A stretch of DNA of 62,607 nucleotides, counting the filler, from Catajapyx aquilonaris (Eukaryota): NCBI GenBank assembly GCA_000934665.2. It is 2 parts of 2 records of this genome, joined end to end, with 100 filler letters (N's around TTAATTAATTAA, not from the genome) between each part and the next. Parts side by side here need not be neighbours in the genome. Positions count along the whole stretch, not along the records: positions 31,368 to 62,607 come from JYFJ02004551.1; 1 more part is not named here. The stretch is one strand, 5' to 3'. The position numbers were made by a program, and so were the translations under genes. The notes under the pieces were generated by a model that was not told the origin of the DNA, searched no databases, and saw only the letters and a program-made list of their open reading frames with translations. Positions 20,620 through 56,292 of the stretch are shown one piece after another (position 1 is the stretch's first letter; each line of letters opens with the position of its first letter).

Positions 20620-21035
20620 ACCTGCGTGAATATGCCATGACGCATGCTCTGACAATCCCCAAAAAGTGCGACTTTCCACTCAATCCGAGTACACACACTG
20701 TTTGTGCGTGGCGCGATTGAGTTTGGCTGGTAGTGCGCATGCTCCCATCTGGCGAGGCATGCGGCGTGGGTCCCTGCGGGGAGGCGGCGGGAGGATAGAG
20801 TCGGGGAGGCGAGTTGGGGGAACGGGAAGTCGTCGGCGAGGCGAGCCAGCCAGCCAGCCAGCCATCAAGCCAGTCGTGAGTGAGAGATAGGCCGGGGAGG
20901 GTGGCCATCGCAGGTCATGCGGGAGTCGCGACGTCGTCGTCTACCGGACGCCGCGGTGTGAGTGAGGGCGGGTGGGTAGGCCGCGTCCACCGCCTACTCC
21001 ACGGATGCTGGCTCCATACGGACAGGTCTATGTTC
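20620..21035 (+). promoter_or_regulatory. GC/CpG-rich promoter and 5' leader of the I-Smad gene
   Basis: Sharp rise in GC and CpG immediately upstream of the Smad ATG; transcription start not determinable. Confidence 0.5.
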
Positions 21036-21417
21036 ATGTTCCGGAGCAAACGGAGCAACCTGATCAAGCGGCTGTGGCGACTACAGCATGCGGGATTGGG
21101 CGACGGGGAGGAGTTGGAGGAGGCGCGGGCGGCGGCGCATGCACTCCTCAAGCGGATGAAAGAGACTCAACTGCAGATGTTTCTGCAGGCGGTAGAGAGC
21201 CATGGGGCTGACCTGTCCGAGTGCGTGCTGCAGGAGCGCCGGGAGGTGGTGCTCCGAAGACGGGTCGTGGCTCCCCATGTGCTGTGTTGCCAGCTTTGGC
21301 GCTGGCCCGACCTGCAGCTGGAACTGGAGCTCAAGAGGCTCTCCTGCTGTGGGTCGGCCAGAGACCCGGTATACATCTGCTGCAACCCGTACCACTGGAG
21401 CAGACTCTCCAGGCCAG
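21036..21417 (+). CDS. Smad6: Inhibitory Smad (Smad6/7/Dad-like), coding exon 1: conserved N-terminus plus MH1 domain (alternative in-frame ATG at 21030)
   Basis: MFRSKRSNLIKRLWR start typical of Smad6/7; LLKRMKETQL..QAVES..CV..PHVLCCQLWRWPDL..ELKRL..CCNPYHWSRL; donor G|GTAAAT, phase 1. Confidence 0.95.
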
Positions 21418-22864
21418 GTAAATATTGTGTGTCGGCCAGTGGTGATATCAACAGTTTTCAATTCACGTCTGTATTTTTATGGACGGGACTGTACTTTTCG
21501 GCTTTTAATCGGGGNNNNNNNNNNNNNNNNNNNNNNNNNNNNNGGGGGGGGGGGGGGGCGGAGGGGCCGGCGAAAGGAGAGTTGGCCCACTTGCGGCATG
21601 TGCTTGATGGGGAAAAGGAAAAAGTGAACCTCTGGTGTATGGTGCATGTCAATGGTGTGTGGATGGACATTCGGCGGTTTCGGTTGCTTTGCTGGTTGTT
21701 TACGGCGCTCTTAGGGGTGCACTCGAATAAATAATTGAAATTTTTGATCAGATCGCATCGTACTTGTTAGAACTACCGCTATAGGCGTAATGTGTATTTT
21801 ATACCCTCCTAACAAACTGGTGACAGTATTTGTAACGCGGCTTGAAACCAATACGATAATGACCGTAATAAACTTGTTAAAATATTGTTGGTAATCAGTT
21901 TCACAAAGTTAGATAATTTTTAGTAGTTTGGACTGCTGGGACTGGTACTATTTTGCACCTGCAGATGTGACGGTTGGTAAAATTGTGACGCATCACATCG
22001 GACCTGTTTATTATCCGCCTCGAAGGGAGCTGGCGCGCCAGAGCCGGCTTGGTGGCTGGCTTTCACATACCTGCCTCCTCTGAAAGCAGAAATAGGATGT
22101 TTCACCGTATTTGAACCGTCACCATATCGTGAAATAAAAACATTTGCACAACACCAATCCAGATTAGCCCATTACCATCTAAATGTGTCGACAAAAGAAA
22201 AACCCGGGTTCTAGTTCAAGTAGCTCAATCCCTCGGGCCATATGAAGAAATCAGGCCGAATCCGAACAAAAGGGCCAAAAAGGGGTTTGCCCAGGTTTGC
22301 CCTTCTCCCACCCACCCTGGGGCACTCACTGATACCTGAGCCTATTTTGACCCTAGGAAAGGAGGGTAGCATGGTCACTGGAGCATGAATTCTTGGAAGA
22401 CATGACGGTACAGCAGGCTTGGAAACCCCACAAATTCGCGTAGGGTGGGATTAGTCTGGTCCTAAATTAAAAACCTGGCCCTAGTGGCGTTTAGGTCTTA
22501 GATTAGTAACAGGGGGCGAAAACCGATAGAAACCGCGTAAAATGCTGAGGCCGTGTGATGTCCGAGCAGTTGGTGTGTGGAAGTGGGGGAGAATTTAGCG
22601 TGCGGTAAGAGTAGGAATGAGAAGGTTGGCGCCAAGGGAGGCCGCCAGCCCGCTTATCTGTCGCCGGGAGCTTGGCAATTAGTCGGGGGGAGAGCTGGGA
22701 GAAGGAGGGTGCCCTCTCCCTCCCCACTCCCTCCCTTGCCCATATGCTGGGCGCCACACAAGTCGACAAGTATCGATACGGGCCGAACTATCAGGATGGG
22801 GGATNNNNGGGGGGGGGGGGGGGGGGGGGGGGGGGAGGGGCAGGCCCTGGCCCCGTCAGGTCGT

Positions 22865-24533: not shown

Positions 24534-27242
24534 GTATGCCTTTGTTTTCATTTGTTTAGTCTTCTGGGGTGTGTGGAACAATGGTATGGCGCAAGTATGT
24601 TTACACGCCGGATCCCATTTCCACCGATGATGCACGTCCTTGGGGAAGGTTGAATGTGCGTCTGGGACGCCATGCTGCCTTGGCCGCGAGAAGAAATAGC
24701 TGATTGAATAGCCTTTATTCAAGCTTTGACCTACTGGCACCAATGCGGGCAGGGCAATTCGGATGGTTTTGGGAACCAAATGTACCAAATTTGAAATGGA
24801 ATTACGTGGGAAGGTCGAAGCTCCAATAGTTAAAGAGTTTGACTTTGTATGGCCCATTTGGAAGCAAGGTCACCGCACCGGGTCATATCTGGCTTGCTCA
24901 AAAATTGGTCATCTTTTTGATCCCCCACACCTGCTGACTTTTAAAACGTCTGATATGAAAATAGTCCCATGTCTGGCCCGAATGTTGTTTGTGCAGCAAG
25001 AGGTCACGGCACTTGGACGGAGTGGTGTGAGTCGTCCAGAATCCAACGACTGGGGGCGATATGGTTGGAGCCGGCCGCCAAATAAGATACTGGTGAAATC
25101 CGATCGCGCCCGAGCGACCTATGACTTTCCACCACGTAAAGATAGCCCGGAGTGTGAGTTACCAGATCCCAAGGCTGCCTGCTGCCTGCTGGAACTGAAT
25201 AACAGATGATGTTTGTGACAGATAAAAAGGCCAGTTCGTACGGCTGTATATGAACAAATATGTTCGTACGGCTGTATCTGGCCAAATTCGTACCCGCGGA
25301 AATATCTGAAGCAGAATTATTATAGAAACAGGTTATCTAATGTCGACCCCCCCCCACCCCCCCCTCCTTTGCCGAAAAGGGCACTTAATCTAATCTGGGG
25401 GAAAGGTTGGTAGGGAGGAAGCGGAAATGAAAGGTCAAGTAGTGTGGCGCCCAGCCAGGTGGCGCTACGAACGCACCCTCCGAGACGCCCATTATTCCCC
25501 GAGGCCGGCCGCCGACATGATCGCTCTGAAAAGGTTAATAACTACCCTGTCGCCAGACATATACTGACTCATTCTCCCATGTAGGACAAGCCTCATATAC
25601 GGAAGGGGTGATTCGCGCGCAGGTGTGAATCCCAGTTAGCTTTGCGTTTTTTTTTTTTTAAAAAAAAAAATTTAAAATAATTTTTTCTCTCTCGAAGAGG
25701 TGTATCCCTGAGGAAGGACGCAAAAGTTGGCCACGCAAGCATGAAAAGCAAAAGGTTGCTTTGGGATTCTTTGCATGCGACCAGGGGTAGGGGGCTCGCA
25801 TGAGTGATAATCATGGGGTTTGCAGGGGGAACCCGTGCGATTGTCGCGCCCTGCCACCTGCCGGCTTACCTTGGCCCAACAGGTAAAAAAAAGAAGGCCT
25901 TCAGGCTGCCCTTTTACTTGCCCAGGTACCCCCGATGCGCAGTGTCAATATTACTTATGTGGCCTAAGTGGTGGGGACATAAATATGTGAAATCGAGGTT
26001 CATTGGGAATTGATGTGATTCAAAGGGGCGCGGGGATATTATAGGCTGGACTTAATTGCGGGACCGAGGTAGCCTAGTGTAGGGAGCTGTGTGCAAATAG
26101 TTAGCTGATGTGCTGGGCGGGGATGCCATTTCCTTTTCAAACATGTGCAAATCGGCGAGGCGTATAAGTGCACTTAGCCGAACCCTAACATGATATAGAC
26201 ATGTGTGATATTTTTTTAAAATAGATATTAGTTTACATTTGTTAACATTTTTGGGTGATGTAACATACTGCTAAGCCTTTTTTTTTTGTTTAGTGCTTGA
26301 AAGTCGAGGGCCACGGGAGAGTCACATTGGTTGTGGTGGGTTTAGTAGGGGGGTTGGGGAGTCTTCCTCTTGCATGGCCTCATTGTGGCGGGGCCACGCA
26401 CAACCAAATTACAGGCTCCCTCCGAAAGGAAAAGAAACCGGGGGGGGGGGGGGGGGGGGNAGGGCGCTATTGTTGCATGGGAAAGTAGTTTTTTTGTTTT
26501 CACATCAAACGAAAGCGACCGCTGCGGTTGGCGACATTGTTGGAATACACGGCGTATATATCAGCAGCTCCTAGGTTTTGCCGAACTCGAATTCTCCATT
26601 CCCCCCATGAAAAAAAAAAAAACCTTGTAGGAATGTGGATTTCTGATCGATCGCCGTGAAAGTATCGAGTCAAAGGTTAGGCTTCCCAGGACGCCGCATG
26701 ATTCACCCCCGTCTGTGTAATGCATCATTGGCCAGTAATGAGTCGCCCAGATAGCATTGGTTTAAATAGTTATTGAAGATAATTACAAATATGTACAGCC
26801 GACAAGATGGCCACTGTAATCAACAATTAAATACAGTGTACTATACAGTGAAGCATAGGGAGGGTCCAACTTATCAGGGTGTCCCAACTTCACAGGTTTC
26901 ATTGCATTATTTTGATGATGACCCAAAGCCGGTGTCCCCATCTACACGAAGAAATATTCTCAGCATTTCCGGAAGGGAAATAAGTGGGGCATGAGAACAG
27001 GTGCGGGCTCCGGGGTGGAAACCTTCCAGGGCTCAGCTTTCAGGGAAAAAATACCACACACGGCGCTTACCTTTTCCATTCATTTTTCCGCCATTTTTCG
27101 CCTCCGCGACACCGGCGCGGTATCCCCTTAGACAAACAAACCAGTCAGAAGGTGTGTCAGTGTGGGCGTCGACTGTTGCGTACCACCTGCCTTCGAAAAA
27201 CCGTCCCAATTGTAAATTAAAGTTCTTGTTTTTTTGTTTCAG

Positions 27243-27320
27243 ATTGTGCACCCAGCGAAGTCTCATCGCAGGAGACGCACGGGACATTGCCGTACGACTC
27301 CGTCACCGAAAACATGGCAG
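27243..27320 (+). CDS. Smad6: I-Smad exon 3 (linker)
   Basis: ttgtttcag|ATTGT...GCAG|gtgag, phase 1-1; DCAPSEVSSQETHGTLPYDSVTENMA matches the DxAPSE motif recalled from insect I-Smads. Confidence 0.8.
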
Positions 27321-28702
27321 GTGAGACCGCCCGGCAACTTGTTGCTGGTATGCCCGTGGCAACAGGTCCATGGCGGCAACCCCGTCCATCCATCTATCTA
27401 TCCGTCCATCCCCTTTTTTGGGGGACGTGTGTGTGGGAGGTTGCCACGGTGGTCACGGCCTCGGCGGTGTTGCCAGGTGGACTCAGATTCCTTGAAAGCG
27501 AGTGGGGGACGCAGCCTTCTGGCGACGACCTTACAGGACGGCCTGTGAATGGAGGCTGCATGGGCGCGACTCTATGCGGGGTTACATCACAGGGGGGTTA
27601 CCTTTTTGCTTCAGCGCTACCTAACGTCCGATCATGGAAAAATCGGACCCAATTTGCGATGTACAGGAGGGGGAGGTCAAGTAGTGACCCGATTTTGGTT
27701 TTTTTTAAAAAAATAAAAATGGTTGTCTTTTGGAGGAATCTGTGCGGTGGATTTTTGTGTGTGGAATGCAGGACATAGTTGGCACATTCCTGCACGATTC
27801 GTTGGCCCGAAGAGATCCTCCGGAGCTGACCGACCAGTCCGGCTCACCTCGGCACGTGGGATGCCACCACCCGACGACTCCACCCCTGCTTGGCTCCTTA
27901 CTTAAATTCGCCCAATTCGGCACATGTGATACTAAAATTGCAAACCAAACCTGGACAAACAAACAAACATTGCCTTTTATAATAATAGATTGCCACTGTT
28001 GGCCACCTTGCCCGTATGAATGACAGGGATATGTAACCCTGGGATTAGAGAAATGTCTCCAGGACCACGTGGCCCATTCACATCGAGTCTGATGACCTCT
28101 CTTCAGCAAGGGAAAAATCAGGCCAGCAGTCCACTTCGATCCGAGCAACGGTTCTTTTTATACGGCGGCATGCTGCTGGGGTCGACGACGACTCGAAAAA
28201 GAGTATGGGCCCGGTCTGGCTCCTGACTTGAATCAGGTTCCTTGACTAGATAAAAGTGTAGAATTTTTTGGGATAGTTTTAAGTTTTGGTGGGGGGTAAC
28301 CCTCTAGAGTGGCGTTAAGCAGGTGCTTTTTGCCTTCGTAATTGATACGGGGCAGGGTAATACATTACCATAGATTTGCCGCTTGGATCGGCGCTCCTGG
28401 ATTTCCTAGGGGTTATGAATAGCCCAGAGTTCTAGGTCGTTATACTGGGTGAGTCAGTGAATCATTCCCCCCGAGCATTCCCCAGAGTGGTACAGTATAT
28501 CGGAACGGGACTGGCGGCAGAAGCACCCAACTGTAGGCGCTTTAGAAATAATTGTATATTTTAATGAATTTCAATATTTATGTAAATTTGCTTGAAATAT
28601 TTTATATAATTATTCTTATGTAAATGTATGTAAATTGTTGAAGCAAATTCAAATACGTTCACTATTTGATAGTGTAATATTTCTTATATATATTTTAAGG
28701 AG

Positions 28703-31267: not shown

Positions 31268-31367
31268 NNNNNNNNNNNNNNNNNNNNNNNNNNNNNNNNN
31301 NNNNNNNNNNNTTAATTAATTAANNNNNNNNNNNNNNNNNNNNNNNNNNNNNNNNNNNNNNNNNNNN
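31268..31367. other. Artificial contig linker N44-TTAATTAATTAA-N44
   Basis: Exactly 100 nt and symmetric; the central 12-mer places stop codons in all six frames. Confidence 0.95.
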
Positions 31368-31379
31368 ATATGGTATCCA

Positions 31380-31989: not shown

Positions 31990-32289
31990 GTGACTTTGAC
32001 AGAGTACCATGTGGTTGGTCTGAAGTGCAGCCTTTGCGGCTCATACAACACATGCATGGAGGGGGCTCCGTTCAGAAGAGTAGCAGCGAGCGGGACTGAG
32101 CAGTCAAACCATGCAGAAGTGGGCGAAGGAGGGGAAGGTGGCTCAAGCATGGACCAAAGCCTGTTGGTCATGGAGGAGAATGGTCGTGAGGGTGAAGAGG
32201 AGGCGGATGATGAAGGATTGGACGAAGAGGTAGAAGGGGCTGTGGGAGGGGCTGTAAATGGATCCAGCAACGAGAACTCAGAGTGTTAG
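31990..32289 (+). CDS. RCHY1: RING finger and CHY zinc finger protein 1 (Pirh2), terminal exon: C-terminal zinc ribbon plus acidic tail
   Basis: tcttttcag|GTG, phase 0; VTLTEYHVVGLKCSLCGSYNTC matches the RCHY1 motif FH(I/V)(L/V)G(M/L)KCxxCxSYNT; TAG stop; downstream AATAAA at ~32539, ~32987, ~33446. Upstream exons lie outside the contig. Confidence 0.88.
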   Translation: MTLTEYHVVGLKCSLCGSYNTCMEGAPFRRVAASGTEQSNHAEVGEGGEGGSSMDQSLLVMEENGREGEEEADDEGLDEEVEGAVGGAVNGSSNENSEC

Positions 32290-33191
32290 TCTTAATCTCG
32301 GTGCACGGACCCATCCGCACTGAGACTCTTGTAACTTATTCCAAAAATTGGCAGCCTTTACCATGGTCTGCACTTAATTTTTTCCAAAATACTCATATGG
32401 TGTCAGAAAAAAAAGTGAGATGGTAAAAATTGCAGTAAGCTGAACCCTGGCTGTGTTAAAAAGAGATTGATGGATTTTAGATGGGTGGGGTACGGGGGAG
32501 AGAAATGCATTTCGTGTTTATGTGAGGCATCATAAAAAAATAAATTTAATTGAAGTGTTAGGATTCATTTTCTATCTGGATTTTAGGGACGGGATACAAA
32601 TTTAACCATGTTGTATGTCGCAATTTTTGAAATAATTTTAATTCCTATGTAACATTGTGTTGTGCTGATACCATCATCACATGGTGTGGAGTAATAATTA
32701 CAAGCAGAATCTGTATGAGTAAGTTCTTCCCTTCATATTGCACTTCTTTATTTTGATCATTTTTTTGTGTATAAAAAAAGGGTCAATCAACACTGTTAAT
32801 ATCTCTCCCATTATGCTCCATCTCAACAAATTGCGTCTCAAAAAGCATTGTTTTAATGGCAGAAACAAAAGAGGACACTAAGTTTGCTATCCTAATAGCC
32901 CCAAATTCCCTTCCTCCCAAAAAACTATTTATAAAAAAAGAAGGTCCTAACAGTCTTGTGTTGGTCTTGTGTTGTTTTGTTAGACAATAAAAAGTGACAC
33001 CCTGAAAAGGCGGACAATTTAAATGTAGTGTTTCACTACACTTAACTTGTCGGGCTTGTTCTATGCTCTGCTATTGGAAGTGTTTCATACAAGCACATGA
33101 CCTGAAATACCCTGGCACTGTCTCATAAGGCTCATAACTCATAAGACACTGTATGTGTATCAAATACACAGCTCTCAATAATTGAAGATGT

Positions 33192-34670: not shown

Positions 34671-35420
34671 GTTGTTAATAAAATTATTGTAGTCTGCCAA
34701 CTTGTCCAGGTGTATACAATGCCTCAGTAGTTGGAGGCTGAGCTTGACCCTTTTGACGCAGCATGGAAAGAAGATAAATGGAAGGAACCGCATCTTCTCA
34801 TCCGTGGTGTGGAATGAGCGAAGACAGCACATAATATATGTACTAGAACATGAACATGTATACAAGAAATAAATTCGGAAATAATGAAATAATAGCTTCA
34901 GTACGAAGGAAATTAATCGAGTTATTATTATTTATATTAAAATCCAAATACAATGATGATAACAGTTTTAAAATAGTTGGTTATGTAGAAAGGTTTTTAA
35001 AAAACAAGGTTTGCTTGTGAAATTAACGTTTTCGTCATTAAACCTCTAGGCTTCGTTTAATGCTTGGTCACGTTGAATATAATCAAACTAATTGCGGAGT
35101 GTTTTTAATAAAATCGTGATGAACGTAATCCTTGCAAACAATGGAGCATCCAGTCCGAACCAGTCATCCCAGAATCTAGGCAACACTTCAATAGAGCTTG
35201 CGACGTTTGTTTGAGTCGGAGTCGTTGGTTTTCGGCACCGAATACCAGGGTCCCTTCTGAAAAAGATTTTTTGAGGTGAATTCGTTCGCACAAGCTTTTA
35301 CCAAGTGCTCAGGTTGATATGTGTCTGGTAAATCTTATGTTATTCATTAGCATTTACAAAAATTTTGGCACCATCCCTTCTGCGCCAGAAGGTATATCAG
35401 CATGATGCTGAGTTTTTGTT

Positions 35421-35622
35421 TTAAAGAGCATAACGCAAGAGAAACAAGAGTATTACCGCTCTTTCAGCAAAGGTTTCCATTCCAATCTCCAGGATGCCCA
35501 TCGTCATGCCCTGGGGAACAGCGATAGACAAGATTCCCATGTTGCGAGCCTCCTGGATTCCCTCTATATCTACATCAAAATACAGGACTTCGTGGGCTGC
35601 GTATCCTGAATCATTCAAAATC
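35421..35622 (-). CDS. MDP1: MDP1-like protein, exon 4 (3' end ambiguous: read-through to TAA at 35421, or splice at 35457)
   Basis: ttctttag|G, phase 2; ILNDSGYAAHEVLYFDVDIEGIQEARNMGILSIAVPQGMTMGILEIGMETFAER aligns with MDP1 [53 protein letters not shown]. Confidence 0.85.
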
Positions 35623-35884
35623 CTAAAGAACATATATAATGCATCGTCATTATCTGGACATATTAGCTTAAAGGGATGTGTTTCTATATTTAAAATAATA
35701 TTAATATAGCTCATTCTCTTCAAGTATAATATTATAATGACAACCCTTTCCACCATGAGGGTAATCATGTTCATCACCACCAAGCAGGCAAAATAGGAAG
35801 CTGATGCCCAGTTCGCCACAATGCTTGAGAGGGTGATATGAGGGTCGCTCAGAGAATGATCGCCTTGGCGCCCTTTCAATGTCG

Positions 35885-35915
<31 letters not shown>

Positions 35916-36433
35916 NCCAGTGTCCAGACACACGCTTCAGCTGCAAGGTAGGGTAGAAGGGGGCAATGGGCCAATGGGGGTACCGACAACTGCGTCTGCC
36001 ACTTAATAAAGAAACTAACGAGACAAAAATTCGAGTACACCCGCGCTTTGCAAGGATCTAAACTCTAAAGAGTCTAAGCAATCGCAAAAGAAAACCGTGT
36101 CATGGGCAGTACTTCCTGCACTCATTGCAGTATGACTTACGTACTTACGAACGGGCTCCCAAGGCTCCCCATAAGGATATTTGAGGAGGTGGCCGCCAAC
36201 AACTTCTACCTTCCATTTTTGTCGTTTTTATGTTAACATCACCATTAAAATCTTCAAGTAATATCGCACCTAAATATGAGCCAAAGAGCCAGATCGAAAT
36301 GAGTTTTCAAAACCATATCAAGGGGACGAAATCTGGATATCCCACGCTCCCAGTTACAGCCATACAAATCGAATCTACAAAAGTGGCATTTTCTCGGAAT
36401 AGGGTTCGGCAACCACACTAATATTCAAAGTTT

Positions 36434-36546
36434 ACAACAACAACAACAACACGACATTTCCCTATGAGGGGTAGTCAGCGATGAAGGGAGACACAAGCTA
36501 ACCCATCTTTGAACTAAATTAAAACATATGAAAATAAAGCTATAAA
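36434..36546 (-). mobile_element. 3' end of a non-LTR retroelement with a (TTG)n tail (sister copy 62490-62607)
   Basis: (CAA)n then ACGACATTTCCCTATGAGGGGTAGTCAGCGATGAAGGGAGAC in both copies. Confidence 0.65.
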
Positions 36547-36742
36547 CACCCACACCCCACCCCTGCTCATCTCAGACGACTACTGATTAACGAACCTATC
36601 CGATAGTGTCATTAATCAGTAGTGTGCATTATAGGCATATTGAAAGCAGAAAACACAAAAATTCAAAATTTCGTAATTTTCTGAACAGAGGACATATTGT
36701 GCCTCAACCTTGCGGTGCAAAACTTGCGAGTAGGAAACTTAA

Positions 36743-37606
36743 GGTGGATATGAAGCTAAGGCTCACAATTTGACATCGTTTTGAATTTCACAGGGTTTAT
36801 AGAGTAAGAAGCCCTCTTCCCAATGGTGGGAAAAAAATCACCCCTAACCGGGCAAATAAGCTCGCAAAATGGCTCACAATGTGCCGACTGTCCATAAGCT
36901 CCAATGTTAAATTAAAACTTTATTTTAAAGCATCTACACAATTTAACAGTTTGAAAGTAATATATGTGAAATGTGAAGAATAATATAGTAATTACAAAGA
37001 ACGCAAAAAAAACATATCAAACCGAATGATTTAAATTGTTATCGTGGAAAAAAGAAAAATGGTGCGACGCTAGCCTGAGGCACGGGAGAAGTGGCAACAT
37101 GGCCTCCTGCACGAATGGATGTATCCATGGTAGTGTTTGTTTATTAAAGTGATTTTCCTACGAAATGGCGCGCAGAGTGTCCGAATTTGCGAGAGCGGCG
37201 TTGCCACTTTTATGTCAACAGTTGGTTACCAACTTACTGTAAATTAAAGCCTACACTTATCCCCCTCCCTTTCCGAAGATAATGTGTATTATGTAATGGA
37301 TGTAACACGACATTGTAGAGCCTCGTAACTGTCACCCACTACCGTCGCCTTTTATCCTAAATATGCTGCCCTTGGCAAACTAAAAATTCCGGTGTGTACA
37401 TTCCAGTAGGTTGGCAATGTGTTCCAAGTGAATTAGGTTTTGCCCTGTAACAAATCGAGTTTACGGTGGATTTTAAAATGGAATGCATATTATTCCTCAG
37501 CATCCACTACTGCATTAGATGCAGGTGTTTCCCCGAATTTAACTGCTCTAATTAACGTTTTTGTTCTAGACACTGAATTGACTAGGGAGGTAGCTTCATA
37601 TCCACC
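36743..37606. mobile_element. Non-autonomous DNA transposon with TTAA TSD and 5'-GG termini (Kolobok-like)
   Basis: TTAA|GGTGGATATGAAGCTA ... TAGCTTCATATCCACC|TTAA, perfect 16-nt TIR. Confidence 0.75.
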
Positions 37607-38266
37607 TTAAATCAGTGACAGATGCGAAAATCATCCCCACTCCAGTATTCTCTGCCTTCCTGCCCGTGGGAAAGGAAGCTGAGTAATCAAAAGCAGCCTA
37701 TTTTTCTACCGAGGGGCCAAGAAATGGTCTGTTAAAGCCGACATGAGATGAAAATGTGTCTGTTATGTCAGGAGTAAAAATGCACAGCACCTTATAGAAT
37801 GCTGTGGCAGGCCTTTCGAGTCTGTTACAACCGGATTCAACTCTATTAACAATTTCTCTGAATCCATCAAGCGTGCCTTCTCGGTAAGACATATGCATCC
37901 GAGTTAAGCGCCGATGTTATTTCTTTGGAGTTGTAGTCAGTGTTTTTGTCATGTTCTGTTGTGCCCTTGCTTTGGTAACCATGTTTGTTCTCCCTTCCCA
38001 GCCATTATATTTGGCTACTTTTTCATCACAAGTTTTTTTTAATGGGCACGATGCTCCTTTTTTATAACTTCAAGAACTTTTACGTATCAAGTCCAGCAAC
38101 TGTCTGTCGGATTTAATACGGCACATTACTTAATTTCGCGAACTACTGGCTGCTCCACACCCTTATTCGGGCCACATCAGGTCTTGCTCATGTGACCTGT
38201 TCGAAGCCATCACTCCCGTGAGTACAGAACATTTACACTCCACCTGGCTTAGCTCACTATTCAGTA

Positions 38267-38730
38267 CTAGCATGGGACCCGTTCTTCGCACTGGGATTGA
38301 TAAATGAATGATTTGTAAAACCTCCACATACTGTACAAGCGGCGATACCCGTTCTTCACACGGGAAAAAAGCGTTCAGATTTATACCGAGATCTTTCCAA
38401 GCATTATTATTATTCAAGAACAAAAATGGGCGACACGGTGGCCTAGTGGTTAGCGCCGCAGCCTTCCACCTCTAAGGTCCCGAGTTCGATCCCCCGGTCG
38501 GACGGATGATACTTATGTGGATAGAGTTTCGATGGGTTCTCTCCGTGTTTTCTCGGGGTTCTCCCGTTTCCTCCCACTATCAAAATCCATCACATTACAG
38601 GCAAATGATTAAAGACGGTTATTCAAAAGATGATCCCCTAAGAGGCCCAAGGGGCCTATCACGGGGTATCCATTATTATTCAAGAACAAAACAGAATTCT
38701 TCCATTGCCTGCATATGCATGGGATGTGCA
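38267..38730 (-). mobile_element. Helitron family B fragment with two tandem 3' termini, interrupted by a SINE
   Basis: CTAGCATGGGACCCGTTCTTCGCACTGGG (38267) and CAAGCGGCGATACCCGTTCTTCACACGGG (38336) match the 41680 terminus; similarity resumes after the SINE (TTCCATTGC..CATATGCA). Confidence 0.6.
38428..38671 (+). mobile_element. tRNA-derived SINE with a V/Meta-type central domain
   Basis: Box A TGGCCTAGTGG, box B GAGTTCGATCCC, GGGTTCTCCCGTTTCCTCCCAC core, 20-nt TSD ATTATTATTCAAGAACAAAA (38406-38425 and 38672-38691). Confidence 0.85.
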
Positions 38731-39296
38731 ATATTGCTTTTACAAGGCTCGCTCCGAAAGTTATGCCTCCTATTTTATTGTGTTGGGCCACGTATGAGTC
38801 CTCCCTAAAAAGTGTAAGGCTTCACCACCACTGACAACCGAAATGCATAATAGTGAGGATGGCTTCAATATTTTCTAACCCGCCAAAAAAATTAAGGCAC
38901 AAAAATTATTGCAATGGCCAACGATTATTCCAGAGAAACACTACGCGACATTCGCAAGTTGTTGTGTAAAGCTGGACAAGAATAATACAGGAATTCTGAA
39001 AATGTATACTAATGAGCAACAGGTTGTAAAAGATGACGAGATGAAAAGTTGTACTGTAAGTAGTTAATGTCAAAACGGGAGCTCAAAGTGGAGTCCACCA
39101 GTCGTCCGATACATGGACAGACTAATTAAAAAATTCAATCTATATTGGGGGTTTACTGGCAATGACAATATTATTTACTTATAGGAATTAGCGACCCGAA
39201 ATGTGGGTCCGACTTCATTTGGTGCTCCCTACTGTCCCTAGATAGGTGGTAGGAAAAGTTTGAGAAACACTGCGGGCTAAAACATGCCATACTAAC

Positions 39297-39515
39297 TTGC
39301 TTATGAGCTCTATCTTGGTTGCAGAAAAAATAGCTTCAAAATGAACCAAATGATTCCAAGCAAAAGCATCCACCAGCATTTTGGTGCTCGCCGGATCGGT
39401 GGTGTTGTTAATGAGAGCCACCTTGTATCCATCACTATTCAGAGTGCGAAGAATCTGGAGCACACCCATGTAAGGCCGAATGCGCTGCCTGGTTCGATCA
39501 ACAAGGACGCCATCT
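39297..39515 (-). CDS. MDP1: MDP1-like protein, exon 3
   Basis: cattacag|A ... AA|gttagt, phase 2-2; DGVLVDRTRQRIRPYMGVLQILRTLNSDGYKVALINNTTDPASTKMLVDAFAWNHLVHFEAIFSATKIELISK aligns with MDP1 DGTVRDRRGQDVRLYPEV...IYPGSKITHF. Confidence 0.88.
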
Positions 39516-41237
39516 CTGTAATGGTGATTATTTTAGTCAAAGATACTCATAATCATCACTCATAAGACATTCAATATTAGTAAAGTACAAAGTGGCCAAA
39601 AAATCAGGACATATACGTAGTCTGTGACGGTAGTGAGCAAAGTAGTGAGTAGGTAAGAGGACACATTGACCTTCTGTTTGATTCACGAGATTAATGAGTT
39701 TATCGTCATTATTCTGATTCATACTTGAAAGGTAAATCACTAAATGAAAAATGGTTTCAGACTTCCACAGAACAAAAAGGGACGGATGCAAATGAATGAA
39801 AATCATCAACTGTTTTGTATTTGTTCTCCAGCCACATCTGTGATGTCACAGAGGGTGAGCAATTTTAGCGCTAATGTTTTCGCCCATATATTTTGCTCAT
39901 TGCTATTTGTATTTTTACACGGTCCATCGAATACAAGACCACTGTACTTCTCTTCCCACACCGATAATCCCCTCCGAAAATGACACTATCTTGGGCTCCT
40001 CTATACTTCCCTGCTACTTCCAGTTTTCCTACAATTACATGCCCCTGAATGTTTGAAAACAACATAAGGTCTCATTGTAACCCGGTCCCGGATGAGGAAA
40101 CTCAGCAAAGTTTGAGATCTGGTTACAGCAGACACAATATTGCAACACACATAGATAAGAGCCAGTTTTTATGATCAACCCACGCACAGCATCAGAACCT
40201 GCGCGTCTTGGCAGAACAATAATGATAAGACTCTTCCTCGGAGGGCTCCCCAATGCAGTGGCACGAGAAATATTCCATTACATCACCTTAGAAGTGATAA
40301 TAATAACTTACGTTGGTAATATGGGGGAAAACAATACTTGAGAGAAAGGGACAAAGCCTGTTCAGTCCGCCCCGGTATGGCCCCGGAAGCCGGTATACGT
40401 ACTCTTGGTACTATACAGTATATTCCGTTGTGTGCCCACAATATATTGTACACTTCTAAGTCACCTTGTATCCCTCCCAAAAATTACAAAAATTACTTCA
40501 CCAAGTAGCATACTGTGTGACTTGGACATGTCCTAGTAATTTGTCTTCAGAGGAACAAAAGCTCTTCGGTCTCTTTCGCGCTCGTATTTTTCGGTACATA
40601 ACCATAATCAAACTGCAATTATTTAAGCAGTTAAATGTTTTCTGTAACTCTGTGTGTATGCCAGGGAGAGTGGGGGAGAGCTCATGTCTATGATTCCTCC
40701 ACTTCAGTGCGTGCTGCCCCCCCCCCCCTCCATTTCCCTTCCATACTTGTTTTTGCTTTTAGACATCTTAAAAATTGCATAAATTTACAGGAAAACTTGC
40801 ATTAAATGTACATTAAAATTTAACAATTGTGAACTATCAGCTTTTCAGGTCTTATTTGGCTGTTTCATTTTAAAATATAAATCTAATTTCTCTAACGTAA
40901 ATTCTATTAAATCATGCTAATTTGATTGGAGTTCCTTTTGTGAGGACAGTAAATGTAAATTCTTGATTTTGATTAGCTTTTGTATAGTGGATGATGAGAT
41001 ACATTGGCGCGGGGCCTTTATGGCCGGGTCGCCGTACCTCTGACACAGTGCGTGCTGGGAAGTAGCCTGCGTATGTTACCTCTATTGTAACTGCGCGCAC
41101 TTTGGCAGAAATTTAAAACTGGAAGGGGGGGAGAGGTCCTCCAAATTACAACAAGATCAACAAATAATGCACCTCGTCGTTATGGACACACCTATGTGTT
41201 CAGATATTTTGCCAACTTTCGTAGAATATTGCCTTAC

Positions 41238-41298
41238 CGATTTAGGTGCAGCGGAGTAACCACTTCCTGGTGGACACAAATTGGCCAGGCCGTATGAT
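41238..41298 (-). CDS. MDP1: MDP1-like protein, exon 2
   Basis: cgtag|AT ... CG|gtaag, phase 1-2; DHTAWPICVHQEVVTPLHLNR aligns with MDP1 [20 protein letters not shown]. Confidence 0.85.
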
Positions 41299-41393
41299 CT
41301 ACGGGCCCAAATCCCGTCCCACATTAATAAATAACTGTTCACCACAAATAAAACAGCACATAAGAATATCAAAATTCTGTGTTCATAACTCAC

Positions 41394-41472
41394 CTAAGCT
41401 TATGATCACCAGTTGCGGCTTCTTATTGTCACAGGGATCGGAGAAACCTGCTTGCAAGTGAGCAGCCGCCAT
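41394..41472 (-). CDS. MDP1: MDP1-like protein, exon 1 (probable start)
   Basis: ATG at 41472; MAAAHLQAGFSDPCDNKKPQLVIISL G|gtgag aligns with MDP1 LPKLAVFDL-D. The four exons total 561 nt (186 aa) in one open frame. Confidence 0.8.
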
Positions 41473-42343
41473 ATCAAGCGACAAGGGTGGACTCTGGACA
41501 CAAACTACTCTTTTTTCCTATTGTCTTGTAACTCGCACGAATCGGAGACGCCTCCAGCGCCCTCTAAAAACGACACACCAGTAGCTATACATGATATTAC
41601 GTAAGTGGAGTCTTGGTTGCGCGCGTGAAAAATTAGTTCGATTCATAGGCCTCTGCATGTTTCCTCGCATATTATTTTACTAGCAGCGGTACCCGTTCTT
41701 CGCACGGGGAAAAAAAGAGCGTGGATAATTACATCGAAATCTTCTTAGATCTCAAGCAATATTAAATGCAAAACTGCTCATTCCATTGCATATGCAGGCA
41801 CTGGAAGGGTGTAAAAATTCTGGTTTGTTTGCGTAATAAAGAGCCACGCAACTATGGCTATGTGGTTATCAGAATACAAAAAGGTGGGACAGATGGAGAG
41901 AGAAACAAAGAGGAAAAAGAAGAGAGGAAAGACTGGCATCTCTCTTAGTCTGTCTCCTATCTCAAAGACCTGTCCAACTTGGGCGGCCCTACCAGTAGAC
42001 GAAACTACCGCCGGCATAGCTCTTCAGGATCATGGGAAAACGAAAGCTCACCACCACGGCAAGGTGGCGATACATTGGGGGGAGGGGGAATTTAACAATG
42101 CGGATAAAAAAATTGGGGGAAGTGCAAAATTTGAAACCATTTACAGGCCTGTTTCTATGGTAATCACCAACAATATTCTGTTGCCACGGGCAAACAAATG
42201 TTATTTTTTTTTGCCTTACATACGTAGATTAAAATATGTTATTTCTTAATTAATTTATAGCAGCAAACCCGTGTGTAGTGTCTGGTATACATACGTTGAA
42301 CTTGGTGTCAGTCAACCTACACAGAAGTGATTGATAGTGGAGG

Positions 42344-42820: not shown

Positions 42821-43816
42821 AAAATAATACAGTAGGTACCCGTTTTACACCCCTCCATTTTACGCCGTTCTACATTAACGGTTTGAAAATGACATCATAA
42901 AATTTTTAAATTGAAGAATTGTGATAACGTGGAAATTATGATAGCTTGCTGGTTGTGAAGTGGCCAAGAAAGATTTCCCATGCGGGAAGTACCCGTTTTA
43001 CGCCGCTCCATTTTACGCCGTTTCGCATTAACCCCGGTTTTAAAATTACCGTACATTTGAAAATTTTGTATAAGATTAAAAAAAAAAAATGATGATAAGA
43101 CAATCTGAACATGAACGCATCACTCCAACACTTCTGAGACCAAACACACGAACGTATACCTGCTCTTCTTTCCCCTGTGTTTCCTGGTGCCTTGTGGCAG
43201 CTTCTATCGATATATGAACTGTACAGTAGGCCTACTGTATTGTTCGGTATTGTTGATCTCGGCACTCCCCGAAGTACTCCAACCGTTAATTGTTACGATA
43301 CCCTACGTGTCAAGGGGGGTAATCACTCGACTGAAAAGTGTACACTGGAGTACCAAATTCAAGGAGTACCACGGAGTAATAAAGAGTGAGGTGCCTGAGG
43401 AGTACCAGGGAGTACCACTCCCAGGTGTACACCGGAGTACCGAAGTGATTGCCCCCTTGCTACGTGCACTGCAATTATATTATTCTTGCCAACCTGCCCG
43501 TTGTTCTATTGTTTTCATTGTTGAATATGCAATGTTGAATTCATTTTAGAACATGAAGTGAGAGAGTCAGATCCATCATTTGGGCTTGTTGACAGAGAGG
43601 GTTGCTAGGCAATTGCTTAATCTGCTGAAAACCCCCCCTTAGATTCAAAAAAGTTCGGGTTTGGGACTTTTGTCGGGGGCAGTGATAGGTAAGACATGGC
43701 TGTGCGAAATTTGAGCGCTCTCCGTGCCCGGGAAGTGGCTTAATATTAGGCGTGACATACATACATTAATACATATGTACAAACTTTCTCCTTTATTAAT
43801 AGGGATATTTAATATA

Positions 43817-44378
43817 CAGGGTGTTTACGACCTAACTTTACAAACTTCTGGGGGTGATAGAGGGGACCAAGACAAACATTTTTGACATAGGAACCCGTGT
43901 CCGGAAACGCCATCTAGAGGGGGTTCATAGACAAGGAACGGGTGTGCTCAGACGCGTCACGCGAGAGGCGCAAGTCGAGCAGCCTGTTTTGTTGATAGAT
44001 GGCGCTCGGATAGTAACCAACGATGCGATGTGCCATAACGTGGCAACAGCAGAGCCATCTAGCACCTAAAGTACGCCTCCTAGGAGATGCGCGGATAGTC
44101 AACAGCGGTTCTGTTGTTGCCAGGTTATGGCGTATCGCGTTGTTGTTTACTTACAACGACGCGATACGCCATAACCTGGCAACAACTGCGCACCATCTAT
44201 CAACAAAACAGTCCGCTCGACTTGCGCCTCTCGCGTGACGCGTCTGAGCGCACCCGTTCCTCGTCTATGAACCCCCTCTAGATGGCGTTTCCGGACACGG
44301 GTTCCTATGTCAAAAATGTTTGTCTTGGTCCCCTCTATTACCCCTGGAAGTTTGTAAAGTTACGTCGTAAACACCCTG
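43817..44378. mobile_element. Mariner-type long-TIR MITE, copy 1
   Basis: TA|CAGGGTGTTTACGAC ... GTCGTAAACACCCTG|TA, with >160-nt inverted arms. Confidence 0.92.
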
Positions 44379-44389
44379 TATATATTATA

Positions 44390-50233: not shown

Positions 50234-50643
50234 AAGGCAATGTGTGAAATGCCTGGGGTATTTAGGCAAAGTGTGAAATGTCTGTGTTATTTCATACTTT
50301 GACTAGGTATTTTATATAATGCCTTGGTATCATATAATTATACGTAGAATGCCGAAAGGCAAACCAGCATCATAGTATAGAATACTCCCGGCCACGCTCT
50401 AGGGACAAAGTTTGGGCAGCAAGCGGTGTGGTCCAATCAACCCTAGGGCATGCTGTACCAACATAACCCATAACCTAACATTCCTTCCTTGCTGATACAA
50501 ACCTATCTTCAGCAGATACCTATCCTATCCTATCCTATCCTTCAGCAGATACAAGCCTAGGAAAGTAAGAGGTAATATAGTGCGGGATCTCCTGATGTGA
50601 AAGAGTAGCCCAAACTTTCTGGAGCCTGGCTGGGAGTATTATA

Positions 50644-51215
50644 CAGGGTGTAAATGAATTCAATCGACAAACTTGTTGGGGTAATAGAGGGGACCAAGAC
50701 AAACATTTTTGACATAGGAAACCGTGTCCGGAAACGCCATCTAGAGGGGGTTCATAGACAAGGAACGGGTGCGCTCAGACGCGTCACGCGAGAGGCGCTA
50801 ATCGAGCGGACTGTTTTGTTGATAGATGACGCGCAGGTGTTGCCAGGTTATGGCGTATCGTGTCGTTGTAAGTAAACAACAACGCGATACGCCATAGTAC
50901 CTGGCAACAACAAAACCGCTGTTGACTATCCGCGCGTCTGGCACGTCTCCTAGGAGGCGGACTTTAGTTGCTAGATGGCTCTGCTGTTGCCACGTTATGG
51001 CCATCGCATCGTTGGTTACTATCCGAGCACCATCTACCAACAAAACAATCCGCTCACCTAGCACCTCTCGCGTGACGCGTCTGAGCGCACCCGTTCCTTG
51101 TCTATGAACCCCCTCTAGATGGCGTTTCCGGACACGGTTTCCTATGTCAAAAATACTTGTCTTGGTCCCCTCTACCACACCTACAAGTTTGTCGATTGAA
51201 TTCATTTACACCCTG
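50644..51215. mobile_element. Mariner-type long-TIR MITE, copy 2 (core inverted relative to copy 1, different TIR tips)
   Basis: TA|CAGGGTGTAAATGAATTCAATCGACAAAC ... GTTTGTCGATTGAATTCATTTACACCCTG|TA; body nearly identical to 43817-44378. Confidence 0.92.
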
Positions 51216-51340
51216 TATACCTTGCCGGTTTGCCCTTAGACATTATATAAAATGCCTAGGCAATGCTGTATGAAATAAGAAGCATTTCATATTATACAGT
51301 ATAATAATTATTAGCACTTATGACTCCAATTAGTATATAT

Positions 51341-54484: not shown

Positions 54485-54604
54485 AGCCTAGAGGTCTCCT
54501 CGACATCATCGATCTGCTGGGTTGCAGGACGCCAGGTGCCCATATTTGCCCAAAACTTAGCTTCCATTTCATCATTCCAGGTAGGCAGTGTTGGAGATAT
54601 TTCT
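54485..54604 (-). CDS. Uncharacterised repeat protein, repeat exon C (120 nt, phase 2-2)
   Basis: ctgatgctttcttcag|A ... CT|gtaag; EISPTLPTWNDEMEAKFWANMGTWRPATQQIDDVEETSRL. Confidence 0.8.
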
Positions 54605-54776
54605 CTGAAGAAAGCATCAGAACAACTAAAATCAGTTTTGGGCTGAAAAAGACCTACATTTTTCCAAATAGTAGATATGGTAATCAGGACACAATCAGAG
54701 AATGGGTACAATCAGACATAATTACAGATAATAACAAAAGATAGCAACAAATAAGTTACATATGATTTTTTCTTAC

Positions 54777-54896
54777 AGCCTAGAGGTCCCCGCAACTTTG
54801 TTTGTCTTCTGGGTAGCAGGACTCAGGTTGCCCAAACTTTCCCGAAACTTTGATTCCACTTCTTCATTCCAGGCAGGCAGTCTTGGAGATATTCCC
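54777..54896 (-). CDS. Uncharacterised repeat protein, repeat exon B (120 nt, phase 2-2)
   Basis: ctgatgctttcttcag|G ... CT|gtaag; GISPRLPAWNEEVESKFRESLGNLSPATQKTNKVAGTSRL. Confidence 0.8.
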
Positions 54897-54960
54897 CTGA
54901 AGAAAGCATCAGAATAACTAAAATTAGTTTTGGGCTCTAAAAGGCCTACATTTACAAATT

Positions 54961-55868
54961 CAGGAGAACCCTGATTATCCGACTCCTCGGTTTATCTGAC
55001 CGTCCTGCTTCAGCAATAAATCTGTTTTCTCATCAAATACAGGGTGGGCGAAAAGTCCCAGGACACCTGGCTTTTTTTTGCCTGCAAAACAAATCTGTGC
55101 ATGGAAAATGTGTCGGGGATGCTGGTGTGACATATTCTGGACACTGACAGAACTGTTTGATGAGGGGAGACATCTGGGGACCCCCAACAACACCCACAGT
55201 AAGTTAACGCTGTTAACAGTGCAAGAGGGCAGATACCAGCAGGTTCACTGTGGAGGAGAGCCTCATTACGCCTCATATAGGCCTCATACGGGAAAGAATA
55301 TAACGCACATAATGCAGGATATCAGGGCTCCTTTTGGTAAGGTGTCACCGAGAAGAAGTAACTTGAACAAGTGGGAGAAAAAGCATTCAGCATGGGAAAT
55401 GTGAAAGACGGGAAGCGTGAAAGACACTTCCCTTGCTAAATGCTTTTTATGGGTGTTGTTGGGGGTCCTCAGATGTCTCCCCTAATCAAACAGTTCCGTC
55501 AGTGTCCAGAAGATGTTACACCAGCATTTCTGACACATTTTCCATGCACAGATTTGTTTTGCAGGCAAAAAAAAGCCAGGTGTCCTGGGACTTTTCGCCC
55601 ACCCTGTACTATCATGCAGGCCTACTACCCATTAGTTTTGTATTGCCTTAGTTAAATTTATTATAAAATACAGTACAACAGCAGTGTGTATGTAAAAGAC
55701 AAATACTTCATTATTTCTCAGAAAACTATAATATTGTACATTATTAATTTTCGTGTTTTTATGTTTTTGTTGCGTTTCATGCAAGCTTTCTTTGCTCCTT
55801 GGATTATCCGACCTTTTCGGTTATCCGATGATGCCCCAGTCCCGTGAGTGACGGATAGGGTTCTACTG
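54961..55868. mobile_element. pogo/Tigger-type MITE hosting a nested mariner-type MITE
   Basis: CAGGAGAACCCT ... AGGGTTCTACTG|TA with TTATCCGA repeats; interrupts the duplicated intron at a TA (compare the empty site CAAATAGTAG at ~54665). Confidence 0.7.
55040..55606. mobile_element. Mariner-type long-TIR MITE
   Basis: TA|CAGGGTGGGCGAAAAGTCCCAGGACACCTGGC ... GCCAGGTGTCCTGGGACTTTTCGCCCACCCTG|TA, ~155-nt arms. Confidence 0.9.
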
Positions 55869-55957
55869 TAGTAAATAGGGTAATCAGGACACAATCAGAG
55901 AATGGGTACAATCAGACGAAATTACTGATAATAACAATACAGATGGTTTTTTCTTAC

Positions 55958-56080
55958 AACCTAGAGGTCCCCTTAACATTCTTCTTGGTAGCTGGATGCA
56001 GGATCCCCATACTCTCCCAAAACTTGGCGTCCACTTCATCATTTTGGGGAGGCAGTCTTGGAGATCCGTGAAGGAGTCCT
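55958..56080 (-). CDS. Uncharacterised repeat protein, repeat exon A (123 nt, phase 2-2)
   Basis: ctgatgctttcttcag|A ... TT|gtaag; GLLHGSPRLPPQNDEVDAKFWESMGILHPATKKNVKGTSRL; indels relative to exons B/C are multiples of 3. Confidence 0.8.
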
Positions 56081-56292
56081 CTGAAGAAAGCATCAGAATA
56101 ACTAAAATCAGTTTTGGGCTTTAACAGTTTCTGCTGACATGAAAAACCTCAAAAACTGTCACTAACTCATTTCCACTAACGGTTAAACTTTGGTAATTTT
56201 TGCCTTGTTGGATTCTTCAGAACTTGGCTGTACTGTCTTTTTAAATAGCATGATTCAGTATTACATAAAGAACAAAAAAAATCATGCCATAC

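Follow-up and report, generated by a model that had tools for sequence, protein, structure and literature searches.

The DNA analysed here (the window) is a stretch of 62,607 nucleotides, filler included, from Catajapyx aquilonaris (GenBank assembly GCA_000934665.2), in which two contigs are joined end to end and positions 31,368 to 62,607 come from JYFJ02004551.1. This second contig carries, on the minus strand, a gene resembling that of magnesium-dependent phosphatase 1 (MDP1), hereafter the focal gene. Its four exons have GT-AG ends throughout (AG acceptors and GT donors) and splice into a coding sequence of 561 nucleotides, that is, 186 codons plus a stop with no internal stop codon, which bears out the unbroken, MDP1-collinear frame of 186 amino acids claimed in a preliminary description of this DNA. 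Exon 1 (41472-41394, 79 coding nucleotides) contains the start codon, strand beta-1 and the codon of Ser25 (41400-41398), which stands at the position of the MDP1 nucleophile Asp11 (human numbering via alignment), and ends in the phase-1 donor GTGAGT. Intron 1 (41393-41299) is 95 nucleotides long, and a stretch of 25 nucleotides within it (41348-41324) is identical in the sister paralogue on contig C1400 and contains a TTAA that may be branch-point-like; the acceptor at the end of this intron is pyrimidine-poor. Exon 2 (41298-41238, 61 nucleotides) completes the codon of Asp27 (MDP1 Asp13), encodes Thr29, Trp31-Pro32 and the flap region, and has the phase-2 donor GTAAGG. Exon 3 (39515-39297, 219 nucleotides, phase-2 donor GTTAGT) encodes Asn83 and Asn84 of motif II, with codons from 39409 (MDP1 Ser69 and Arg70), Lys114 of motif III (39316-39314; MDP1 Lys100), and Leu117 at the position of MDP1 His103. 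Exon 4 (35622-35421, 202 nucleotides including the stop TAA) encodes Asp136, Val137 and Gly141 (MDP1 Asp122, Asp123 and Asn127), and ends with a hydrophobic C-terminal extension of 12 residues that is common only to the focal gene and its sister paralogue. The similarity to the sister extends beyond the coding region on the same strand: the 5' flank or untranslated region (41473-41556) aligns at 79% identity over 86 aligned nucleotides, and the 3' flank (34722-35390), a duplication remnant with many non-triplet gaps, is 68% identical to C1400 and includes two candidate poly(A) signals ATTAAA (35109 and 35061).

MDP1 is usually single-copy. A search with Pfam PF12689 (5 matches among 21 candidates) found a canonical MDP1 in the same genome on contig G000:C3844, as the preliminary description had suggested looking for. 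The intron phases of this gene (1, 2, 2) equal those of the focal gene, the lengths of exons 2 and 3 (61 and 219 nucleotides) are identical between the two genes, and in both of them intron 1 interrupts the codon of the second Asp of motif I. The register of motif I thus rests on gene structure in addition to alignment. The spliced focal product scores 129.5 bits with a profile made from 62 canonical MDP1 database matches, and C3844 scores 244.7 bits. Taken singly, focal exons match PF12689 at scores that fall short of the cut-off (E = 0.0014 and 0.00014), and in the PDB exon 4 matches just two sequences at E ≤ 1, those of human MDP1 and mouse MDP1. On these comparisons the focal gene can be placed by descent in the MDP1 family (PF12689).

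The four motif readings of the preliminary description (ISLDHTAW, INNT, YFDVD and ATKI) are all correct and lie at the minus-strand places given there. Its statement that only the Lys is retained is too strong, in that Asp27, Thr29, Trp31 and Asp136 are kept besides Lys114 (in human numbering, the retained catalytic positions are Asp13, Thr15, Lys100 and Asp122). What has been lost is the nucleophile Asp, replaced by Ser25, the Ser and Arg of motif II, replaced by Asn83 and Asn84, and the second Asp of motif IV, replaced by Val137. We compared these positions with the best 150 of 757 database representatives, 74 of which have all four motifs aligned. The nucleophile position is Asp in 70 of these 74 and Ser in none; the motif II Ser is present in 71, the second motif IV Asp in 69 and the motif III Lys in all 74. 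The second motif IV Asp, Asp123 of MDP1, is presumably a direct Mg ligand. Judged by the residues of an active HAD enzyme, the focal protein has the acid/base Asp27 and Lys114, and lacks the nucleophile, the Ser or Thr of motif II and the D(D/N) of motif IV. The aspartyl-phosphate mechanism cannot run, because the nucleophile, the motif II hydroxyl and the motif IV metal ligand are absent, and catalysis by the HAD route is excluded on motif grounds. The roles of the four HAD loops are set out in the available portions of PMC3607736 and PMC13543951; the latter reports that Nem1 requires all four motifs, that changing the motif I Asp to Glu abolishes activity and that substrate binding persists in the inactive complex. 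In the focal protein a hydrophobic residue is found at 31 of the 31 hydrophobic core columns, and 5 of the 13 invariant polar columns are kept, which, as far as sequence can tell, is the pattern of a retained fold and a lost site. The protein would accordingly be classed as a pseudophosphatase by the usual definition, a homologue with a phosphatase fold whose catalytic residues are replaced. The motif losses, the open frame and the copy on C3844 also support the earlier description of a paralogue of the canonical gene that is catalytically dead by motif and still coding.

The focal gene is one of at least 20 MDP1-family loci in this genome (the exon searches gave 18 and 20 loci, in addition to the PF12689 search). 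Among the 19 loci that were modelled, nine have four exons, eight have exons 2-4, one has exons 3-4 and one has exon 4 only; the links over multi-kilobase first introns in these models are inferred. All 19 have open frames in the exons found, with the same phases throughout. On the 561-base contig C16998, which holds the twentieth locus, the matched portion of exon 4 has a translation similar to that of C854. Collapsing loci at ≥98% nucleotide identity, some of which are possibly alleles, leaves about 13 groups. C3844 is the only modelled locus with the full catalytic set. One divergent paralogue alone, G000:C4631 (L013), keeps DxD, Lys and DD; it has a His at motif II followed by a 5-residue insertion and is a candidate for an enzyme of changed specificity and for a natural intermediate. 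The other 17 modelled loci are all without the second motif IV Asp, and the complete motif I variants among them are S-x-D, E-x-D, D-x-E, G-x-E and Y-x-E.

In one of two careful trees the focal gene and C1400 are sisters (support 100/98); the supported clade around them (99/96) comprises 11 divergent rows and includes C4631 as a nested member. This tree left out six rows that are near-copies or consist of exon 4 only, and its C1884 row had small boundary errors; the position of C854 differs between the two trees. All members of the divergent clade have Ile in place of Ala68 and Leu in place of His103, and 9 of 10 have Gly in place of Asn127. Since these changes mark the whole clade, the pocket appears to have been remodelled first, with catalysis then lost separately in at least two sub-lineages. 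A dead sister subfamily of 10 loci with D-x-E is clearly constrained (dN/dS, or omega, of 0.38; P = 4×10−9 against omega = 1), and positive selection was not detected in it by M2a versus M1a (P = 0.73 and 0.36). We also noticed a young dead subfamily (C6248, C4908, C5504, C3589, C6127 and C5759; L024, L026, L028, L030, L031 and L034), in whose exon 3 motif II is directly followed by an Asp/Glu/His-rich insertion of 7-8 residues. For C6248 and C5504 the complete models give an isoelectric point of about 4.4, and this subfamily may bind cations, a role unlike that of the focal gene. C5504 further carries coding exon 1 twice, in near-identical copies about 3.2 kb apart, upstream of a single set of exons 2-4.

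The protein of C1400 is 59% identical to the focal protein and has the same Ser at the nucleophile codon, the same Asn at motif II and the same hydrophobic tail. Because C1400 shares Ser25, the nucleophile was lost before the two genes duplicated, and it follows that whatever selection preserved after the duplication was not phosphatase activity. We then asked how the two copies have diverged. Their coding sequences differ by one in-frame codon indel, with no frameshift and no stop in either, and the start codon and all six splice sites are intact in both. The non-coding blocks of the same pair contain 19 non-triplet gaps in 737 aligned bases, from which about 14 are predicted over the coding length; the same aligner placed 5 spurious non-triplet gaps in the coding sequence, so that about 9 expected is, by our own estimate, the fairer figure. 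Changes between the two proteins fall at 13 of 53 low-entropy columns and at 29 of 52 high-entropy columns (P = 0.0014, Fisher's exact test). Only 2 of 48 core columns have turned polar, compared with a neutral mean of 9.4, and in 595 of 600 neutral runs the replacements are less conservative than those observed. A fair reading of these results is that the frame and the core are constrained and the surface is near-neutral. Plain neutral decay since the last duplication, which the preliminary description had named as an outcome that would overturn it, is disfavoured by this conservation of frame and core. The comparison points to selection on the sequence through much of the period that followed the duplication, when the nucleophile had already gone, which does not imply present-day activity of the gene.

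Several observations weigh against lasting function and would fit a relaxed duplicate heading to a pseudogene through birth-and-death turnover, with the fold kept for part of the time and little or no function now. The maximum-likelihood omega of the pair is 0.65-0.66, with intervals of 0.45-0.95 and 0.45-1.0 (P = 0.049-0.065); the dN/dS below one that had been proposed as a check thus holds as a point estimate (0.66) and is only borderline as a test (P = 0.05-0.065), as its interval reaches 1. Divergence is flat over codon positions (47, 44 and 52 differences in 186 codons), the Jukes-Cantor distance at fourfold sites (0.29) about equals dN, and the non-coding sequence is equally or more similar than the coding sequence (Jukes-Cantor distances of 0.15-0.27 versus 0.285). 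A branch model gives an omega of 0.39 on the focal branch, not significantly different from 1 (P = 0.33), with a saturated stem. With neutral divergence of 0.15 per branch, a stop-free frame survives in 6.5% of runs, and function lost only recently would be traceless. Such a history nevertheless has to accommodate the absence of frameshifts where about 9-14 are expected, the sparing of conserved and core columns, the intact start codon and six splice sites in both sisters, and the fact that the property kept after duplication was not phosphatase activity. Likewise no broken exon occurs in the 19 modelled loci, although the protein-based searches that found them favour intact exons. We regard a relaxed duplicate as the main rival and a serious possibility, albeit clearly a minority one.

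It is very improbable that the protein has acquired an altered chemistry as a metal-independent hydrolase or transferase acting through Ser25 or Asp27. Asp27, Thr29, Lys114 and Asp136 do remain, and some predicted pseudophosphatases of other folds stay active, according to the accessible text of PMC13216928. The nucleophile, the motif II hydroxyl and a motif IV Asp are, however, all missing at once. The lesions differ elsewhere in the family (D-x-E, E-x-D, Y-x-E and G-x-E), as expected of a decaying site more than of a shared new chemistry, and exon 1 ends with the base that opens the Asp27 codon, a base constrained by splicing.

A further rival is a wrong gene model, in which a different first exon supplies DxD or the exons are spliced otherwise. 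The four-exon model is drawn from the genomic sequence (no RNA record was listed for 35300-41520, which speaks neither for nor against expression), and the duplicated exon 1 of C5504 indicates that alternative first exons are possible in the family. In the 21.3 kb upstream on the focal contig we found no strict D-x-G|GTRRR site, and none of 14 looser D-x-G|G[TC] sites resembles the MDP1 beta-1 strand with a good donor. The best matches there to a motif I profile are without the Asp or without a donor, and no family profile matches the region at E < 0.5. The top of the profile scan consists of PKLIL-like reads at 54644, 54936 and 56120, which have no Asp and no donor and were rejected as exon 1. 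These lie in 54485-56120 (minus strand), where a small exon and its acceptor tract occur in three tandem copies that belong to an unrelated gene, the translation of the tract mimicking MDP1 beta-1 by chance. The alternative first exon with DxD that the preliminary description had named as a refuting result was thus not found in this upstream stretch. The losses in motifs II and IV lie in exons 3 and 4 and would persist whatever the first exon, and we consider a wrong gene model very improbable.

No orthologue of the focal clade was found elsewhere in the following searches, all of them weak negatives. Exon 3 matched none of 29 candidates among longer proteins, a search with the family exon-3 alignment gave no match among 8000 scored, and the top six BLAST matches of either sister, within the best 150 of 757 representatives, include none above 33% identity. 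With alignment A4 we obtained 6 matches among 1096 candidates, namely two named leafhopper proteins, P0142 (Homalodisca liturata) and P0151 (Macrosteles quadrilineatus), and four unnamed relatives of these. Like the focal protein, P0142 and P0151 have lost the nucleophile and the second motif IV Asp, and have Asn for the motif II Ser and Leu for His103. Unlike it, they have hydrophobic signal-like leaders, and at 25-27% identity they are no nearer to the focal protein than canonical MDP1s are. They also form a supported clade of their own with P0152, in which DxD, Ser, Lys and DD are all intact. A quick tree had joined P0142 with the divergent paralogues (SH-like approximate likelihood ratio test, SH-aLRT, 97); we rejected the shared origin that this suggests as a long-branch grouping, in that both careful trees, to which P0151 and P0152 were added, give separate supported clades. 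Since P0142 and P0151 group with P0152, which has the catalytic set, and apart from the family studied here, their loss is best read as independent and looks convergent. A look-up of P0142 in the ESM Atlas returned ordinary MDP1 clusters. P0141, P0061, P0142, P0151 and P0152 all have hydrophobic signal-like leaders, some with degenerate motifs, and make up a putative group of secreted MDP1-like proteins, of which the two named ones come from leafhoppers. Six MDP1-annotated proteins are listed in a predicted spittlebug secretome in the part of PMC13551515 available to us. Another database protein, P0001 (251 amino acids), has two tandem MDP1-like halves, the second without a clear motif I, and may be a gene-model fusion of tandem genes.

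On balance we consider it probable that the focal gene is a lineage-specific, still-coding MDP1 pseudophosphatase that functions as a non-catalytic binder. Repeated duplication would have given rise to about a dozen divergent MDP1 lineages, the focal gene being one of them. The change of the nucleophile Asp to Ser predates the last duplication, after which the frame, the splice phases and the core have been kept while variable positions changed at about the neutral rate. The product is predicted to fold as a small cap-less Rossmannoid domain and, having no signal peptide, may act as an intracellular non-catalytic binder, probably in a restricted tissue, with the new hydrophobic C-terminal helix perhaps holding it to a membrane or a partner. 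If the protein is such a binder, we would place about two thirds of the weight on binding that is independent of the old phosphate site. For the remaining third we have in mind a pocket of Ser25-x-Asp27 and Lys114 that would bind a phosphate monoester without metal, by analogy with the LNS2 domain of Nir1, and this remains doubtful. By the same analogy the focal gene and its sister could both be metal-free readers of phosphate monoesters (a phospholipid head group, a phosphosugar or a glycation phosphate) that reached the Nir1 LNS2 solution independently, which we think rather unlikely. As part of that picture, and just as tentatively, the dozen dead MDP1 lineages could have diversified into different binding roles, with the secreted leafhopper set as a parallel. 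Some features sit poorly with these proposals: the pocket of the sister differs from the focal one (N84/R and V137/E), and of the 10 aligned members of the divergent clade 4 have no Lys at this position. In addition, the tail is short for a membrane span (its best 19-residue hydropathy of 1.47 is below the usual transmembrane threshold), and its conservation (12 of 16) is not significantly above that of the rest (P = 0.14). The pyrimidine-poor acceptor of exon 2 also counts against the reading as a functional binder.

Tail-to-tail with the focal gene lies a last exon similar to that of Pirh2/RCHY1 (31990-32289, plus strand; Pfam zinc_ribbon_6). In C1400 (42300-50296) we found one whole Pirh2-like gene, followed by the contig end inside the last intron of a second, and the focal contig starts with matching Pirh2-like intron sequence and the missing last exon. 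The tandem Pirh2/RCHY1-like copies are about 88% identical around the last exon, and the first of them faces the sister MDP1-like gene head-to-head at a distance of about 1.2 kb. The likely order is thus sister gene, Pirh2, Pirh2 and focal gene; the two MDP1-like genes would then have a common orientation and a spacing of about 13 kb, and the C1400 gene is probably a tandem neighbour of the focal gene. Directly after the last codons of the sister gene, at about 32360-32550 of G000:C1400 (L014), lies a short repeat of tRNA type, from which that gene seems to have gained its stop codon and 7 additional residues. A Smad gene with an MH1 domain (20958-21419 and about 27221-27500, plus strand), which we take to resemble the inhibitory Smad6/7 type, lies to the left of position 31268 in the window. 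It was rejected as a neighbour of the focal gene, as it belongs to a different contig and an artificial contig spacer intervenes (31268-31367, an N run, a 12-base TA palindrome and a second N run). Elsewhere on the focal contig, an element of 580 bases resembling a miniature inverted-repeat transposable element occurs at 50637-51219 and 43810-44382 (89% identity); its terminal inverted repeats measure about 190 bases and are 94% alike, and a second inverted pair is present at 55038-55196 and 55450-55608.

With its canonical MDP1, one near-canonical copy and about eleven dead lineages that carry different lesions, this genome could provide a test series for the passage from a HAD enzyme to a binder, and the leafhopper set suggests that loss at the same positions has been repeated. 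To our knowledge the physiological substrate of MDP1 is unsettled, and for that reason the ligands of the dead copies could point to the substrate of MDP1 itself. A literature search, with most subscription journals outside it, found no paper on a dead MDP1 or on an MDP1 expansion. HAD pseudophosphatases as such are a known kind, and the few with a HAD fold described in the accessible parts of PMC13216928 and PMC12419160 are TIM50, fungal NIF proteins and Nir LNS2.

Compared with MDP1 itself (PF12689, Acid_PPase; PDB 1U7O and 2WM8), the focal protein is collinear across the whole domain, at 28-30% identity to C3844, and the four-exon structure, the phases and the hydrophobic core are all kept. 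It differs by Asp11 to Ser, Ser69 to Asn, Arg70 to Asn, His103 to Leu, Asp123 to Val and Asn127 to Gly (human numbering), by its hydrophobic C-terminal extension and by its membership in a 20-locus family. TIM50/TIMM50 and the fungal NIF-domain proteins are pseudophosphatases that share with it a HAD fold with a degenerate motif I; according to the portion of PMC13216928 available, which does not mention MDP1, TIMM50 is the only known human HAD pseudophosphatase. In contrast to the focal gene, these belong to another HAD family, and each is a conserved single gene whose role is known or suspected. More similarities are seen with the LNS2 domain of Nir1 (PITPNM3). As described in the available text of PMC12419160, S-I-D replaces DxD in this domain, another Mg ligand is absent, and phosphatidic acid is bound through a Lys and an amphipathic helix; the focal protein likewise has S-x-D, has lost a further Mg ligand and keeps the Lys, and its hydrophobic tail may form an added helix for membrane contact. 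The phospho-substrate binder proposed in the preliminary description thus has a genuine precedent, though the pocket varies in the wider family. However, Nir1 is a multidomain protein of another HAD family, and its helix is N-terminal and amphipathic, whereas the predicted focal helix is C-terminal and uniformly hydrophobic (moment 0.24). Focal exons 1, 3 and 4 gave no match to the LNS2 Pfam family at E ≤ 1. Nir1 LNS2 is thus a possible analogue of the focal protein and not a relative.

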